Origin: Mariprofundaceae bacterium
GTDB taxonomy: Bacteria > Pseudomonadota > Zetaproteobacteria > Mariprofundales > Mariprofundaceae
Assembly (NCBI GenBank): GCA_030950925.1
Contig: JAUZQO010000022.1
Coordinates: 1,851 to 65,850 of the forward strand
Length of the DNA: 64,000 nt
Direction of reading: 5' to 3'
In this document: positions 3,239-46,431 of the stretch, in pieces
Layout of the letters: every line of letters starts with the position of its first letter
How positions within the stretch are numbered: the first letter of the stretch is position 1
Position numbers and translations under genes: made by a program
Notes under the pieces: generated by a model
What the model was told of the DNA's origin: nothing
Database searches by the model: none
Seen by the model: only the letters and a program-made list of their open reading frames with translations

Positions 3239-3694
3239 TCACAGGCGTGTGTTGGGTGCTTCCAACCCTATTTGTTCGATGTTCTTCGCAGCGTTAATAT
3301 CCCTGTCATGAATAATGTTACATTGAGGGCATGTCCATTCTCTATCAGAGAGTTTTAATCCATCATATTTATAATCACAACCATGCGTTGAGCAAAGCTT
3401 GCTAGATGGTTCCCATTGTCCAATTTGAACAATGATTGAGCCATTCCAGTGCGCTTTGTACTGAAGCTGCCTGACAAACTCACTCCAGCCACAATCTGAT
3501 ATGGCTTTTGAGAGATGTCGGTTTTTCATCATGCCCCTCACATTCAGCGATTCGAGATAGATCACTTGGTTTTCGTTGACTATCCGTTTGCTCTCTTTGT
3601 GTAGGAAATTATTTCTTTGATTCGCAAAAAACACAGCCTGTTCATCGGTTGGATATATCCGAAACTTGTATGCTTTATTGACAACTTCAATCAT
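3239..3694 (-). pseudogene. tnpB: TnpB (OrfB) RNA-guided nuclease homologue with a large in-frame internal deletion (151 aa instead of the usual roughly 350-400)
   Basis: The N-terminus KAYKFRIYPTDEQAVFFANQ (OrfB_IS605 N-terminal signature) is joined directly to the C-terminal RuvC/zinc-finger part NFLHKESKRIVNENQVIYLESLNVRGMMKN...CSTHGC...WTCPQCNIIHDRDINAAKNI. Confidence 0.8.
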
Positions 3695-4103
3695 TTCTTC
3701 TTTTGATCCTCAATGTACTTGCGCACTGTATCTTCAGAAATATGACCAATCGTTTCAATATATGTGGATGGATTCCATAAGTGTCCACCCCACAGCTTAG
3801 ATTTCAATTCGGGATGCCTTACAAAAATCCTACGTGCAGAAATCCCCTTCATCATTTTGTAAATGTACGATGGAGAAATCTTTGGTTTTGCTGATGCAAA
3901 TACATGGATATGGTCAATGTAACATTCCATTTCTTTGATGATAAAACACTTGTCATCTGCAATTTGGAATAACAATCTTTCAGCGAAGTCTCAACTTCAC
4001 CAACCAAAACTTTACGCCTATATTTCACAGACCACACAATATGATAACCTATATTATGTACTGTGGTTCTATCATGAATTAACCCAATTGACATATTGCG
4101 CAT
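3691..4103 (-). pseudogene. tnpA: IS200-type Y1 (HuH) transposase TnpA, split by a frameshift near 3960-3975
   Basis: ORF 3852-4103 gives HNIGYHIVWSVKYRRKVLVGEVETSLKD (N-terminal half). ORF 3691-3975 in another frame gives DHIHVFASAKPKISPSYIYKMMKGISARRIFVRHPELKSKLWGGHLWNPSTYIETIGHISEDTVRKYIEDQ (HuH motif and the C-terminal half). Confidence 0.85.
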
Positions 4104-4189
4104 GGTATAGATATATTTACTTATTGACTATATATAATAGCATTTATTCTATTACATATCCTTATTCTACCGCACAACATTACTTTCAT

Positions 4190-4209
4190 CTCGGCAATGA
4201 ATTACCGAG
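4190..4209 (-). repeat. IS200/IS605 left-end subterminal hairpin
   Basis: ctcggcaatgaattaccgag lies upstream of tnpA. It has the same arms as the hairpin at 3140-3159. Confidence 0.7.
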
Positions 4210-4401
4210 GATTCCCGTAATGCTTCCTAAAGCAGTAGTAAAAAAAATACACCTCCTTAAATTCAACTTTTCACACTCAACTAACCCTGTGCCATCAGGC
4301 TTTAAAAGAGCCAAAATCCATTTTAAATGGATAAGGCAATTAAATTGGTATCGATCATGCTTAATAATATTGATAATAATTATCATTATCAAGGAGTAAG
4401 T

Positions 4402-5124
4402 ATGAATAAAATAGTTATCATGGTTGGCTTAGGTATATCCATATCATTGCTGCCCACATTGGCAACTGCCAAAAAAGTTTATTCACCTATTGTTACCCAA
4501 GGTGAAGTTGAAGTAGAGACGCAAAGCGAAGTGTTTCGTAGTAAAAATCCTGCGGAAAATGGAAAACAAAAACATCAATTGGAGTTATCCTATGGTATAA
4601 CGGATAACTGGCATTCGGGTGTTTATATTGTGTATGAAAAAAACCTAGGGCAATCAATGCGTTATACGCAATCCAAATGGGCTAATATTATTCAACTTAC
4701 TGAGCAAGGAAAATACTGGGTTGATATGGGCGTATATGCTGAATACATACGTTATAAACCAAGCCTTCGTAAAGCAGACGTGTTGGAGCTAAAACTTTTA
4801 TTTGAACGACCTGTTAAACAATGGAAGCACACCTTGAACCTTGTGTTTAAGCAGCCTTTATGGGGTATCAATCAATCATCAATGGGTCTTGGCTATGCGT
4901 GGCGTTCAAGGTATAAAACTGATATGGGATTAGAGGCTGGTATTGAAGCATATGGCTCACTGGGTACAAATAAACAAGTCTTACTGACGCAACGACAATT
5001 GATTGGTCCTGTTATCGAATACACGTTCAATGATACCGTTGAAGTGAATGCAGGGTGGTTAATGAGTAGTAAAGAAGGCCCTGCTTATGGTGATTTTAAG
5101 CTAAATATGGAAGTTAAATTCTAA
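4402..5124 (+). CDS. Putative small outer-membrane beta-barrel protein (function unknown)
   Basis: ATG 4402 is preceded by AAGGAG (4391-4396). The signal peptide is MNKIVIMVGLGISISLLPTLATA-KK. The sequence has alternating hydrophobic/aromatic beta-strand-like segments and a C-terminal ...KLNMEVKF ending in Phe, as in many OMPs. The track start 4327 is rejected. Confidence 0.55.
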   Translation: MNKIVIMVGLGISISLLPTLATAKKVYSPIVTQGEVEVETQSEVFRSKNPAENGKQKHQLELSYGITDNWHSGVYIVYEKNLGQSMRYTQSKWANIIQLTEQGKYWVDMGVYAEYIRYKPSLRKADVLELKLLFERPVKQWKHTLNLVFKQPLWGINQSSMGLGYAWRSRYKTDMGLEAGIEAYGSLGTNKQVLLTQRQLIGPVIEYTFNDTVEVNAGWLMSSKEGPAYGDFKLNMEVKF

Positions 5125-43290: not shown

Positions 43291-44213
43291 ATTTAGGACA
43301 AGCCATCGTTTTGCGTATCTTACAAGCTATTCCGACACTTTTGGGTGTGGTCACCTTGGTGTTTTTTCTTTTGCATTTGGTGCCTGGAGACCCTGTGGAT
43401 GCGCTTTTGGGTGAAACAGCGATGGCAGCCGATCGAGAAGCCATGCGCCATGCCTTACATTTGGATATGCCATTGATGCAACAATATGGATTGTATTTGC
43501 AAGGCTTATTTTCGGGCAATTGGGGGCAAAGTATCATTGACCACAGGGATGTGTGGTTGCGAATGATGGAACGTTTACCTGCCACGGCAGAATTGGCAGC
43601 GGTGAGTTTGTTGTTAGCAGTCGTTCTAGCCCTGCCTTTGGGTTATTGGGCGGCGCGTTATGCAGGAAAATTTCAAGATACTGCATCCATGACCTTCTCA
43701 TTATTGGGTGTGTCGATTCCTAATTTTTGGTTGGGACCGATGTTGATGTTGTTGTTTTCCATTGAATTGGCTTGGTTGCCCGTATCAGGTATGGAACAAG
43801 CGGCTAGCCTTGTGTTACCCGCCGTAACACTGGGTACAGCCTTGGCAGCCATGTTATCTCGCATGGCACGTTCGAGTTGGTTGGAGGCCATGGGTATGGA
43901 TGCGATTCGGACAGCGCGTGCCTTTGGTATCGCTGAAAAGTGGATTTGGTGGCGACATGCTGCACGCATCGCCGCAGTACCCGTAATGACCATGTTTGCC
44001 CTGCAACTGGGGGCAGTGTTGGGGGGCGCAGTGATTACAGAAACCGTGTTCGACTGGCCAGGGTTGGGCATGTTGACCATTGAAGCCATTCAACGTCGCG
44101 ATTACCCATTGGTGCAAGGTTGCGTGTTATTGATTGCGTTGTTTTATGTGCTGGCAAATCTTTTGGCAGACGTGTTAGGCTTACTGTTGGATGCAAGGCA
44201 GCGTCATGTCTAA
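43287..44213 (+). CDS. ABC transporter permease, DppB/OppB-like
   Basis: MNLGQAIVLRILQAIPTLLGVVTLVFFLLHLVPGDPVDALLG is the typical N-terminus of family-5-associated permeases. Six TM segments. ATG 43287 overlaps the queG stop. Confidence 0.85.
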   Translation: MNLGQAIVLRILQAIPTLLGVVTLVFFLLHLVPGDPVDALLGETAMAADREAMRHALHLDMPLMQQYGLYLQGLFSGNWGQSIIDHRDVWLRMMERLPATAELAAVSLLLAVVLALPLGYWAARYAGKFQDTASMTFSLLGVSIPNFWLGPMLMLLFSIELAWLPVSGMEQAASLVLPAVTLGTALAAMLSRMARSSWLEAMGMDAIRTARAFGIAEKWIWWRHAARIAAVPVMTMFALQLGAVLGGAVITETVFDWPGLGMLTIEAIQRRDYPLVQGCVLLIALFYVLANLLADVLGLLLDARQRHV

Positions 44214-45006
44214 ACGTGTGATATTTTTGCTGTGGGTTTGCCTTTCTTTGCCCTTGGCTGTGTTGCTCTTGAGTGCATGGGTGGGGTTGGATGGGCATCG
44301 TGTGAATTTAGATGCCGTGCTTTCAGGTATGAGTGAATCCCATCTCTTGGGTTGCGATGCTTTGGGGCGTGATGTGTTATCACGCTTGGCGGAAGGACTG
44401 CAATTATCGTTGTTTGTGGGTGTGGTTGTCGTGGTTTTGGGTGCCTGTTTTGGTATCGCATTTGGCATGTTGTCGGCCTGGTATGGCGGTTGGGTGGATA
44501 TTTGTTTGATGCGTATCGCGGATGTGGTGCTGGCCTTTCCTGGTATTTTATTGGCGATTGCATTGGCTGCCATGCTTGGTCCAGGTGTCGATAATCTTAT
44601 TTTGGCATTGGTGGTGGTGGGTTGGGTTGGGTTTGCACGCTTGAGTCGTGTGCAAGTCTTATCATTAAAATCATCGCCTTTTGTTGAGGCGGCTCGCGCC
44701 AATGGCATGGGCTTATTTTATATCATGACAAGGCATTTGTTGCCAAATATTGCAGCGCCCCTGTTGGTAGAAGCAAGCTTTGGCTTGGCGGCTGTGATGA
44801 TTGGTGAGGCAGGTTTATCTTTTTTGGGAATCGGTGTGCAACCGCCGAATGCATCATTGGGTACGATGATTCGTGAAGGCACATCGTTGATGTTGGTGCA
44901 ACCCAGTTTGGTGATTTTTCCTGGTTTGATATTGTTTTTACTGGTGATGGCAGCCAACTTACTGGGCGATGCTTTGCGTGATTACTTGGATGTAAAACAA
45001 CGATAA
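44206..45006 (+). CDS. ABC transporter permease, DppC/OppC-like
   Basis: LGCDALGRDVLSRL..., and the EAA-loop region FVEAARANGMGLFYIMTRHLLPNIAAPLLV. Confidence 0.85.
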   Translation: MSKRVIFLLWVCLSLPLAVLLLSAWVGLDGHRVNLDAVLSGMSESHLLGCDALGRDVLSRLAEGLQLSLFVGVVVVVLGACFGIAFGMLSAWYGGWVDICLMRIADVVLAFPGILLAIALAAMLGPGVDNLILALVVVGWVGFARLSRVQVLSLKSSPFVEAARANGMGLFYIMTRHLLPNIAAPLLVEASFGLAAVMIGEAGLSFLGIGVQPPNASLGTMIREGTSLMLVQPSLVIFPGLILFLLVMAANLLGDALRDYLDVKQR

Positions 45007-45024
45007 CTTTTGCATGCAATCATC

Positions 45025-45115
45025 AAAAAAGGCTCCGCATAGGCGAAGCCTTTTCGTAAGCTTGTCTGGCACCTAAAAGGAGGGAGAGGGGAGGAGGGCG
45101 ACACCAGACGTGGGA
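45025..45115 (-). ncRNA. Candidate small RNA, copy 1 (C/U-rich-loop hairpin 45064-45109 + terminator 45025-45054)
   Basis: As minus-strand RNA: GUCUGGUGUC-[GCCCUCCUCCCCUCUCCCUCCUUUUA]-GGUGCCAGAC (10 bp including 3 G:U), then GGCUUCGC-CUAU-GCGGAGCC followed by U6. The same stems read on the + strand contain C:A mismatches. No promoter was identified. Confidence 0.35.
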
Positions 45116-45182
45116 AACAATAATGATCTTTTCTGATGTTTTAGTGATGACTAGGTTAAAAAATGTTTGCTCGGGAGGCATG

Positions 45183-45270
45183 AAAAAAGGCTCCGCATGA
45201 GCGAAGCCTTTTAGAAGGTTTGCCTGGCACCTATAGGAGGGAGGGGAGGAGGGCGGCACCAGACGTGGGA
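45183..45270 (-). ncRNA. Candidate small RNA, copy 2 (hairpin 45222-45264 + terminator 45183-45212)
   Basis: GUCUGGUGCC-[GCCCUCCUCCCCUCCCUCCUAUA]-GGUGCCAGGC, fully paired with G:U wobbles. The terminator is GGCUUCGC-UCAU-GCGGAGCC followed by U6. Confidence 0.35.
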
Positions 45271-45362
45271 AACAATAATGATCTTTTCTGATGTTTTAGT
45301 GATGAGTAGATTAAAAGATATTTATGTAGCAAGTGATGGCACCATGTTTATTCAGGTTCATT

Positions 45363-45447
45363 AAAAAAGGCTCCGCATAAGCGAAGCCTTTTAGAAGGTT
45401 TGTCTGGTACCTAAGGAGGGAGGGGGAGGGCGGCACCAGACGTTGCA
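45363..45447 (-). ncRNA. Candidate small RNA, copy 3 (hairpin 45402-45441 + terminator 45363-45392)
   Basis: GUCUGGUGCC-[GCCCUCCCCCUCCCUCCUUA]-GGUACCAGAC. The loop ends in CCUCCUUA. The terminator is GGCUUCGC-UUAU-GCGGAGCC followed by U6. Confidence 0.35.
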
Positions 45448-45547
45448 AACTTTAAGGCGACCTCCTGAGCTTGTGATGAAACTTAGATTAAAAGATGTTT
45501 ATGAAATATATGATTAAGATGCACCAATATAGGTAGAGGTGAAAAAA

Positions 45548-46279
45548 ATGGCAGTATTAGCAGGTATTCATACAGTAAAACACGCACTGGATTCAGGAGA
45601 AGCACTGGATGAGTTGTTAATTTTAAAAGGGAAAACACATCCACGTTTGAATGAACTTGTGCATTTGGCGAAGAAACAACGGATTCGAGTGACATTTGTA
45701 CCACGGGAAGCGCTGGAGCGTTTATCAGAGAATGTACCGCATCAAGGTGTCGTGGCACGTGTTCAACCCAAAGGTTTGGTGGATTTTAAATCATGGTTAA
45801 AAAAAGTGACAGAACAGGAGATAGGTTCTGTTTTATTGCTGGATCAAGTCACCGATCCACATAATCTGGGAGCTTGCATTCGCACAGCAGAAGCTGCTGG
45901 TTGTTTGGCTTTGATTATTCCCAAAGATCATGCTGCCAATTTGGACTCTCCTGTGGTGGCAAAAAGTGCGTGTGGCGCATTATCGCGATTGCCTGTCATA
46001 CGTGTCACCAATTTGGTACGTACGATGGAAGATTTAAAAGAAGCTGGTTTTTGGCTATCAGGTTTGGCAGGTGAAGCGGATAATGACCTCTATCAGATTA
46101 AATTTAGCGGTAAAAATGCCTTGGTGATGGGTGCAGAAGGCGCAGGTATGCGCCGATTGGTGCGTGAATCATGTGACCAATTGATACGCATACCCATGCC
46201 TGGAAATGTTGAATCTTTGAATGTATCGGTGGCAACGGGTGTTGCTTTGTTCGAAGTGGTGCGTCAGTCGCTTGTTTGA
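45548..46279 (+). CDS. rlmB: 23S rRNA (guanosine-2'-O)-methyltransferase RlmB (SpoU/TrmH family)
   Basis: ATG 45548 lies 6 nt after GAGGTGA. LLLDQVTDPHNLGACIRTAEAAG, MGAEGAGMRRLV and IPMPGNVESLNVSVATGVALFE are SpoU motifs 1-3. Confidence 0.85.
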   Translation: MAVLAGIHTVKHALDSGEALDELLILKGKTHPRLNELVHLAKKQRIRVTFVPREALERLSENVPHQGVVARVQPKGLVDFKSWLKKVTEQEIGSVLLLDQVTDPHNLGACIRTAEAAGCLALIIPKDHAANLDSPVVAKSACGALSRLPVIRVTNLVRTMEDLKEAGFWLSGLAGEADNDLYQIKFSGKNALVMGAEGAGMRRLVRESCDQLIRIPMPGNVESLNVSVATGVALFEVVRQSLV

Positions 46280-46431
46280 GAATCAGGTTTTTCAGCGATG
46301 AATGTAAAGCGTTGTCCGCAATATTGACAAGCTTTATCACCTTTTTTGATGTTGATATAAACCAGTGGATGTCCACCATGATCGGAGCATGAAACGATTT
46401 CTTTAGTGGACTCGATGCATTGTTTACTCAT
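46264..46431 (-). CDS. Small zinc-finger (zf-CHCC-like) protein, 55 aa
   Basis: MSKQCIESTKEIVSCSDHGGHPLVYINIKKGDKACQYCGQRFTF matches the C-x-(D/G)-x-GHP-x-V-(Y/F)...CpYCG pattern of the CHCC zinc-finger family. It overlaps the rlmB 3' end convergently by 16 nt. Confidence 0.6.
   Translation of the reverse strand: MSKQCIESTKEIVSCSDHGGHPLVYINIKKGDKACQYCGQRFTFIAEKPDSQTSD

Follow-up and report, generated by a model that had tools for sequence, protein, structure and literature searches.

A tandem array of predicted sibling small RNAs with anti-Shine-Dalgarno-like loops beside rlmB in a Mariprofundaceae clade

The DNA analysed here is a stretch of 64,000 nucleotides (the window) from contig JAUZQO010000022.1 of an uncultured iron-oxidising Zetaproteobacterium of the family Mariprofundaceae. 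Between the second permease gene of an ABC transporter (BPD_transp_1) and rlmB, the gene for the 23S rRNA Gm2251 methyltransferase, the window carries a triple direct repeat, whose units we propose to be small RNA (sRNA) genes. The RlmB protein encoded next to the array has a 100% identical counterpart in a Mariprofundaceae metagenome-assembled genome (MAG; P0001, named RlmB in its source), and a homologue search places it at 98% identity to a protein of the Zetaproteobacteria MAG NORP31. The repeats occupy the 541-nt gap between the end of the permease gene at 45006 and the rlmB ATG at 45548 (Table 1). A previous, sequence-only reading of the window had described a triple repeat filling this gap, and a repeat scan, TRF and alignment all return the same start-to-start spacing of 158 and 180 nt.

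Each unit contains two hairpins, as that reading had also noted. The small hairpin, GGCTCCGC-N4-GCGAAGCC with A6 and T4 flanks, occurs exactly three times in the 64 kb, where 0.01 occurrences are expected. The pattern of the large hairpin (a 10-bp stem, CTGGYACCT...GRCACCAGAC) likewise occurs three times, against an expectation of 0. On the plus strand the loop of the large hairpin is a polypurine run. The window contains eight purine- or pyrimidine-only runs of at least 14 nt, three of which are the loops of the array, and the runs of copies 1 and 2 are the two longest. The only inverted repeats that the repeat scan of the window returned are the arms of the hairpins, and neither target-site duplications nor a transposase are seen in the sequence of the array. 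Between the copies, the tetraloop of the small hairpin drifts (CUAU/UCAU/UUAU), and a change at 45408 in copy 3 turns a U:G pair into U:A; both details, noticed earlier, are confirmed in the sequence. Read on the minus strand, every unit has the same order: a 10-bp stem with a 20-26-nt loop, a 9-10-nt A/U-rich linker, an 8-bp GC-rich stem with an A:U extension, and U6. In this orientation the array is convergent with the permease gene, whose stop codon lies 18 nt from the terminator module of copy 1, and divergent from rlmB.

Table 1. Genes, repeat units and predicted elements at the permease-rlmB gap (window coordinates; R1 is the covariance model).
Feature	Position	Strand	Basis or remark
Second ABC-transporter permease gene (BPD_transp_1)	44191-45006	+	ORF (open reading frame) list; Pfam on orthologous genes
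Repeat unit 1	45021-45178		
Repeat unit 2	45179-45358		
Repeat unit 3	45359-c. 45510		
Predicted sRNA copy 1, about 86 nt	45025-45110	-	R1 96.5 bits; fold -30.1 kcal/mol
Copy 1, hairpin	45064-45109	-	26-nt loop GCCCUCCUCCCCUCUCCCUCCUUUUA; linker follows
Copy 1, terminator stem-loop	45031-45050	-	
Copy 1, U6	45025-45030	-	
Copy 1, -10-like hexamer TATTGT	45117-45122	-	7 nt upstream of hairpin
Copy 1, block A equivalent	45155-45171	-	Degenerate
Predicted sRNA copy 2, about 83 nt	45183-45265	-	R1 104.6 bits; fold -34.6 kcal/mol
Copy 2, hairpin	45222-45264	-	23-nt loop
Copy 2, terminator	45189-45208	-	
Copy 2, U6	45183-45188	-	
Copy 2, equivalent hexamer TATTGT	45272-45277	-	
Copy 2, block A, A/T-rich	45310-45326	-	CATAAATATCTTTTAAT; 46-62 nt upstream of hairpin
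Predicted sRNA copy 3, about 80 nt, rlmB-proximal	45363-45442	-	R1 100.3 bits; fold -36.4 kcal/mol
Copy 3, hairpin	45402-45441	-	20-nt loop ending CCUCCUUA
Copy 3, terminator	45369-45388	-	
Copy 3, U6	45363-45368	-	
Copy 3, equivalent hexamer TAAAGT	45449-45454	-	
Copy 3, block A equivalent	45487-45503	-	CATAAACATCTTTTAAT
rlmB, 23S rRNA Gm2251 methyltransferase	45548-46279	+	100% identity to P0001; synteny

Relatives of the locus were reached via RlmB homologues and their contigs, and the module was found in four further lineages. It is present in two copies, with the permease as upstream neighbour, in L001-L008 (98% RlmB identity) and in L023 and L024 (87%). Two copies are also found in L026 (90%), where the upstream ORF is cut at the contig edge and has a permease-like 3' end. 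L025 (89%) has a single copy in a different upstream context, and L028, which came from a pattern scan, has one copy at a contig edge. In every case the module directly precedes rlmB, in divergent orientation and in one to three copies, and rlmB is its constant neighbour in five of five lineages. By eye or with the covariance model, no such element was found next to rlmB in L009 and L010 (85-86% RlmB identity), in L033 and L034 (about 80%) or in Ghiorsea bivora (L035, L036). Copy number thus ranges from three in the window through two in 96%-identical strains to one in another lineage, and window copies 1 and 2 stand in a mosaic relationship to copy 1 of L001. Copy-number variation and mosaic copies point to unequal crossing-over between units as their likely origin.

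The strand on which the array acts can be read from its stems. We aligned 12 distinct copies from five lineages of one Mariprofundaceae clade on the minus strand. All 228 of 228 helix cells form standard pairs on this strand, compared with 85.6% on the plus strand and 30-49% in slid controls, in which the partners were shifted by 1-3 columns. Read as the minus strand, the 12 copies contain 38 G:U pairs. On the plus strand there is one, and the stems there carry 1-5 C:A mismatches per copy; each of these mismatches is a G:U pair on the minus strand. Fold z-scores of 140-nt unit segments are -3.5, -4.1 and -5.1 on the minus strand and -1.4, -1.1 and -1.0 on the plus strand. The proposal that the stems are fully paired only as minus-strand RNA therefore holds across all copies. 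Two stem pairs show compensatory double changes in L026_c2 (U:A to C:G and C:G to U:A), and five more vary one-sidedly, always between G:U and Watson-Crick. At least six independent one-sided substitutions can be counted, all of which keep pairing on the minus strand and only there. It is this G:U asymmetry, produced by several independent substitutions, that gives the strongest evidence for selection on a minus-strand RNA.

Sequence conservation follows the same outline. Between lineages, the four-fold degenerate sites of rlmB are near saturation (41-53% identity), and the 32 nt that precede the -10-like box reach 41-59%. The terminator, in comparison, keeps 92-100% identity, block A (17 nt, A/T-rich) 88-100% and stem 1 65-100%, the low values of stem 1 being due to compensatory changes. 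Taken together, the G:U asymmetry, the covariation and the purifying selection support the view that the units encode a structured RNA read from the minus strand. The sequence-only reading had staked its claim on conservation of the hairpin in relatives, and with 12 copies in five lineages the claim survived.

The small hairpin has the features of an intrinsic terminator on this strand. It is predicted to fold with -17 to -18.3 kcal/mol here, against -13.8 to -13.9 kcal/mol on the plus strand, and in most copies the stem of 8-12 bp is followed by U6-U7, the GC-rich hairpin and U-tract that are typical of Rho-independent sRNAs. Covariation and strand-specific G:U pairs add the conserved structure expected of generic trans-acting sRNAs with such terminators. 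Energy and U6 tail agree with the earlier description of a good terminator, although a simple terminator scan of the window did not flag the hairpin, apparently because some of the U-run is paired with the adjoining A-run in the predicted folds. The terminator-hairpin loop (4-8 nt) lacks an anti-Shine-Dalgarno (anti-SD) motif, so that each unit has one motif-bearing hairpin.

The loop of that hairpin is predicted to be unpaired with a probability of at least 0.9 on the minus strand. Loops of 20, 22, 23 and 26 nt were observed, and they consist of C and U except for 2-3 purines at the ends: each starts with G and has 1-2 A near the 3' end. The description of the loops as C/U only is thus correct for their interior and not for their ends. 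CCCUCCU is present in 12 of 12 loops despite length-changing indels, and each loop contains 2-5 overlapping CCUCC motifs. The 9-mer CCUCCUCCC is exact in six of the 12 copies, among them window copies 1 and 2 and not copy 3. The 8-nt identity to the 16S tail (CCUCCUUA), on which the sequence-only reading had laid weight, is real in copy 3 and recurs in L001_c2, L023_c2 and L028, but the loops of the other eight copies end in CCUCCUUUUA, CCUCCUAUA, CCUCCUUUA or CCUCCUUG, and only CCCUCCU is universal. Calling the loops mimics of the 16S tail is an overstatement, since the UUA ending is not kept across the copies. Next to copy 3, the 5' flank also has a minus-strand AGGAGG (45461-45466), about 20 nt upstream of the hairpin and complementary to the copy's own loop. 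It is AGAAGG in L001_c2 and absent in the other lineages, and would be relevant only if transcription started further upstream than predicted.

Upstream of the hairpin, the copies share a hexamer TAnnGT, which ends 7 nt before the first hairpin base. Its T, A, G and T are invariant in 12 of 12 copies (variants TATTGT, TAAAGT, TATCGT, TAATGT and TATAGT). T-12, A-11 and T-7 are the positions that matter most in -10 elements, and TAnnGT keeps all three. We infer that the hexamer may be the -10 element of a promoter and that transcription would start at the hairpin base, which would yield RNAs of 80-86 nt. Further upstream lies block A, separated from the hairpin by a 63-nt interval (block A to hairpin) that is free of indels in eight diverged copies. 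Its position would suit an upstream activator site or an UP element. Of the 11 positions of AAAWWTWTTTT, the distal UP-element consensus (PMC11661796), block A matches 10, a kind of match that is not significant in itself (45 in the window, 55 expected). Several other candidates were rejected. The best Fur-box match upstream of the sRNAs reaches 10-12 of 19 positions, which is window background. None of the sigma-54, ECF sigma-E-like, sigma-32 and sigma-28 patterns fits the aligned upstream regions by eye, and the candidate -10 hexamers for a promoter within block A are broken in L025 and L026_c1. In L026, a (GCAAAA)x6 microsatellite (850-885) abuts the A-run of the rlmB-proximal copy and lengthens the spacer between the two copies.

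We therefore consider it reasonably probable, though far from assured, that the units are sibling genes for trans-acting sRNAs on the minus strand, whose loops pair with GGAGG ribosome-binding sites. In this model, each repeat unit would be transcribed away from rlmB into a small RNA of about 80-86 nt. The 10-bp stem would present the 20-26-nt C/U loop with its 2-5 overlapping CCUCC motifs, followed by the A/U-rich linker and the Rho-independent terminator with its U6 tail. The loop would stay single-stranded, as it has no internal purines and cannot fold back on itself. It could then base-pair with target mRNAs, either at purine-rich ribosome-binding sites of the GGAGG type or in G-rich leaders, and this pairing would block 30S binding and initiation. 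The tandem copies would be sibling sRNAs that arose by unequal crossing-over. In the direction expected from such pairing, predicted duplexes of the loops with 47 translation-initiation regions of the window have a mean of -11.2 kcal/mol, compared with -8.3 kcal/mol for coding controls, and 21% of the initiation regions versus 8% of the controls reach -15 kcal/mol or better. No hfq gene lies within the 64-kb window, a result that applies to the window alone.

Several points weigh against this model. The discrete transcripts are predicted from comparative sequence only. A canonical -35 element is absent, and a consensus promoter scan finds no sigma-70 promoter in the units and leaves the hexamer uncalled, which bears out the earlier remark that convincing promoters were not to be found; a tRNA gene of the window, by comparison, has by eye a canonical TTGCAA-16-TAATAT promoter. 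The enrichment at the 47 initiation regions is modest and generic, and no specific target was found among them. An anti-SD seed would find partners in a large fraction of all mRNAs, which leaves specificity unexplained. The covariation comes mostly from one divergent copy, L026_c2. Moreover, the terminator stem is invariant including its internal U:G wobble, with a G:C to G:U change in L005_c1 as the sole exception, and this conservation appears to exceed what terminator function alone needs.

The last point is also one of those that would suit a decoy or sponge. Here, the minus-strand RNA would not repress mRNAs. Its exposed pyrimidine loop, with its likeness to the 16S 3' tail, would titrate away a protein or an RNA whose normal partner is the anti-SD region or C/U-rich RNA, and the fixed divergent pairing with rlmB would link the RNA to the making of ribosomes or to the overall capacity for translation. 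The invariant terminator stem hints at sequence-specific recognition, 2-5 overlapping CCUCC motifs per loop are more than a single seed needs, and no specific mRNA target emerged from the duplex predictions. In addition, the element adjoins rlmB, in divergent orientation, even where its other neighbour differs. However, the exact tail CCUCCUUA is not conserved, and we found no precedent for a decoy sRNA of the 16S tail. The linkage to rlmB could be plain inheritance in a narrow clade, and L009, L010 and L033-L036 have no element beside rlmB. We regard a decoy as unlikely.

It is also improbable, in our view, that the array acts in cis only, as a cassette of bidirectional terminators or insulators between the permease operon and the rlmB promoter, in which the large hairpin would be a roadblock or a structural element and no trans-acting RNA would take part. 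The small hairpin with its A-run and T-run flanks does fold on both strands, the first copy begins only 18 nt past the permease stop codon, and the units contain no canonical promoter. One terminator would be enough for this task, yet whole units are duplicated, with block A and the pyrimidine loop kept under selection, and L025 has its unit beside rlmB despite a different upstream context. The consistent G:U asymmetry indicates selection on the minus-strand RNA and not on a plus-strand terminator. Insulation also leaves unexplained why the composition of the loop is conserved despite indels.

A further possibility, which we hold to be decidedly improbable, sees in the RNAs no common repressors of specific targets and instead a dosage-tunable mimic of the 16S anti-SD region that is coupled to rlmB through a shared divergent control region. 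They would compete with the 30S subunit for Shine-Dalgarno (SD) sequences, or titrate a factor of the 16S 3' tail, and so set global translation capacity together with ribosome biogenesis. The number of copies, from 1 to 3, would then serve as a gain control open to evolution.

Very little speaks for a function on the plus strand, where the purine loops (AGGAGGGAGGGG) would lie in the rlmB 5' leader or the permease 3' untranslated region and serve as SD-like or GGA sites (a sponge of the CsrA/RsmA type) or as G-quadruplexes. The loops do hold several GGA/AGGA motifs and G-runs, and the array is upstream of rlmB and co-directional with it when read this way. In contrast, the stems have 1-5 C:A mismatches per copy on this strand, with 85.6% pairing and a fold z-score around -1, and the one-sided substitutions preserve pairing only on the other strand. 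Four runs of at least three G are not conserved, as L026_c2 illustrates (AAAGGAGGGAGGGGGAAAAAC), and we rejected the G-quadruplex. A sponge of the CsrB/RsmY kind fails as well: the GGA motifs sit on the strand with the mismatched stems, and the Rfam match to RsmY is on the minus strand, covers the terminator only and scores 21.6 bits against a threshold of 57. Finally, a genome-specific mobile or repetitive element of the REP/MITE type, which the sequence-only reading had put forward as its alternative, would account for tandem copies with palindromic hairpins and for copy number that varies between strains, but is extremely improbable, as the module occurs at the rlmB locus only and the dispersed copies looked for in genome, metagenome, viral and window scans were not found, a result limited by strict search patterns and by MAGs that are not complete.

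These scans agree on a single locus. Over 185,579 species genomes (GTDB representatives, one each), the only true locus found with the hairpin pattern is the syntenic locus of NORP31; the other 11 matches are in unrelated organisms and are about as many as estimated by chance. In metagenome contigs, the terminator stems combined with AGGAGGG as a search pattern gave one real match (L028), along with five high-GC matches that are apparently due to chance, in a collection that evidently lacks the JGI contigs reached by protein look-up; viral contigs gave none. With its filters off, covariance model R1 scores the three copies of the window at 96-105 bits. The next unrelated match in the 64 kb has 12 bits, and at 23-33 bits the model picks up the terminator hairpins of the array again, from their plus-strand side. 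A generic scan of the window for hairpins with a pyrimidine loop of at least 10 nt containing CCTCC returned these three only. The claim of the sequence-only reading, which dozens of dispersed copies would have overturned, survived here too.

The same units match no Rfam family at gathering thresholds, at which the window yields three tRNAs only. At E up to 10, sub-threshold matches to RsmY, STnc320, ar15, ar14 and SorY appear, driven by the terminator or the C/U tract. A coding function can be dismissed as well. The 78-aa minus-strand ORF at 45023-45259 spans two units, and loop lengths of 20, 22, 23 and 26 nt break the frame; there are no gene calls in the gap of L001-L008.

The anti-SD loops and tandem arrangement raise the question of whether the array belongs to a known family. 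CcsR1-4 and the cuckoo RNAs are tandem sibling sRNAs with CCUCCUCCC anti-SD loops and established regulators (PMC4615179, PMC8034643). Like the cuckoo/CcsR/alpha-r14 RNAs (RF02344), the units of the array are small RNAs, here predicted ones, whose hairpin loops present the anti-SD-like motif CCUCCUCCC (PMC4615179, PMC8034643), in its exact form in six of the 12 copies. In both cases clustered tandem paralogues vary in copy number within a conserved intergenic neighbourhood, and stems vary compensatorily while the loop motif is kept. Nevertheless, cuckoo RNAs consist of 2-4 adjacent short-loop hairpins with CCUCCUCCC in each loop (PMC4615179), whereas a unit of the array has one 20-26-nt loop and its own terminator. 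ccaF1-ccsR1-4 is co-transcribed and processed by RNase E; the strong terminator of each unit makes this mode of expression unlikely for the array. The cuckoo neighbourhood contains a DUF1127 gene (ccaF1), while the array lies between BPD_transp_1 permeases and rlmB, with no DUF1127 called in the loci. All 321 cuckoo RNAs in a screen of 2,689 genomes are alphaproteobacterial, and the host of the array is a Zetaproteobacterium. On the minus strand of copy 2, the RF02344 (ar14) model scores 12.8 bits against a gathering threshold of 58.8 (E = 7.8). We thus reject cuckoo membership on hairpin number, terminator, DUF1127 neighbour, host and RF02344 score, and the resemblance is probably convergent rather than homologous.

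sX13 of the Xanthomonadaceae and RepG of Helicobacter pylori carry motifs reminiscent of the cuckoo motif (PMC4615179). The mode of action predicted for the array is the same as theirs, but there is no sequence or Rfam match between them at E up to 10, and the loops of the array are much longer and pyrimidine-only. Both sX13 and RepG pair with G-rich leader sequences, and both are single-copy genes and not tandem arrays. Together with cuckoo/CcsR they are the closest functional analogues, in place of the C-rich-loop sRNAs of Firmicutes named in the sequence-only reading. AbcR1/2 are tandem sibling anti-SD sRNAs with pyrimidine-rich seeds that regulate ABC transporters. The array abuts ABC permease genes, and copy 3 gives a weak minus-strand match to the AbcR family (alpha-r15, RF02345). 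At 17 bits against a gathering threshold of 40 (E = 0.75), membership was rejected; in addition, the permease is not a constant neighbour of the array, as L025 shows, whereas rlmB is.

The window and its relatives also provided observations apart from the array. A small zf-CHCC ORF on the strand opposite to rlmB (window 46104-46379 (-); L001 4693-4860) overlaps the rlmB 3' end by about 16 nt in L001-L008. In L009, L010, L033 and L034 it lies at the rlmB stop codon or a few nt beyond, and the gene calls of L025 and of Ghiorsea bivora (L035, L036) do not include it. At 4372-4390 the window contains a near-consensus Fur box (GATAATAATTATCATTATC, minus-strand reading), which departs from the 19-bp consensus at one position. 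An AAGGAG ribosome-binding site with an ATG at 4403 follows 12 nt downstream. A Pfam scan of the two overlapping ORFs at this place (3935-4399 and 4327-5124) gave no match. The frame from 4403 may be an iron-regulated gene of unassigned function in this iron-oxidiser. A 151-aa ORF at 3239-3694 (-) matches a Cas12f1-like TNB domain and IS605 OrfB fragments, and looks like the remnant of a truncated TnpB-type transposon.

Taken together, we propose that the array probably represents a new family, restricted to one clade, within the known kind of sibling sRNAs that carry anti-SD loops and would act as translational repressors, and not a new kind of system. No paper about small RNAs of Zetaproteobacteria, marine iron-oxidisers most of which are known only from MAGs, turned up in a full-text literature search. 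For this class, the locus would be a well-supported candidate riboregulator, identified by sequence comparison. It suggests that tandem sibling sRNAs with anti-SD loops have also arisen outside the Alphaproteobacteria, probably by convergence. With its long pyrimidine-only loop and its copy-number polymorphism in near-identical strains, the array would offer a natural series with which to ask whether such RNAs have specific targets or act as global translational dampers, a question that has been left for the cuckoo RNAs (PMC4615179).

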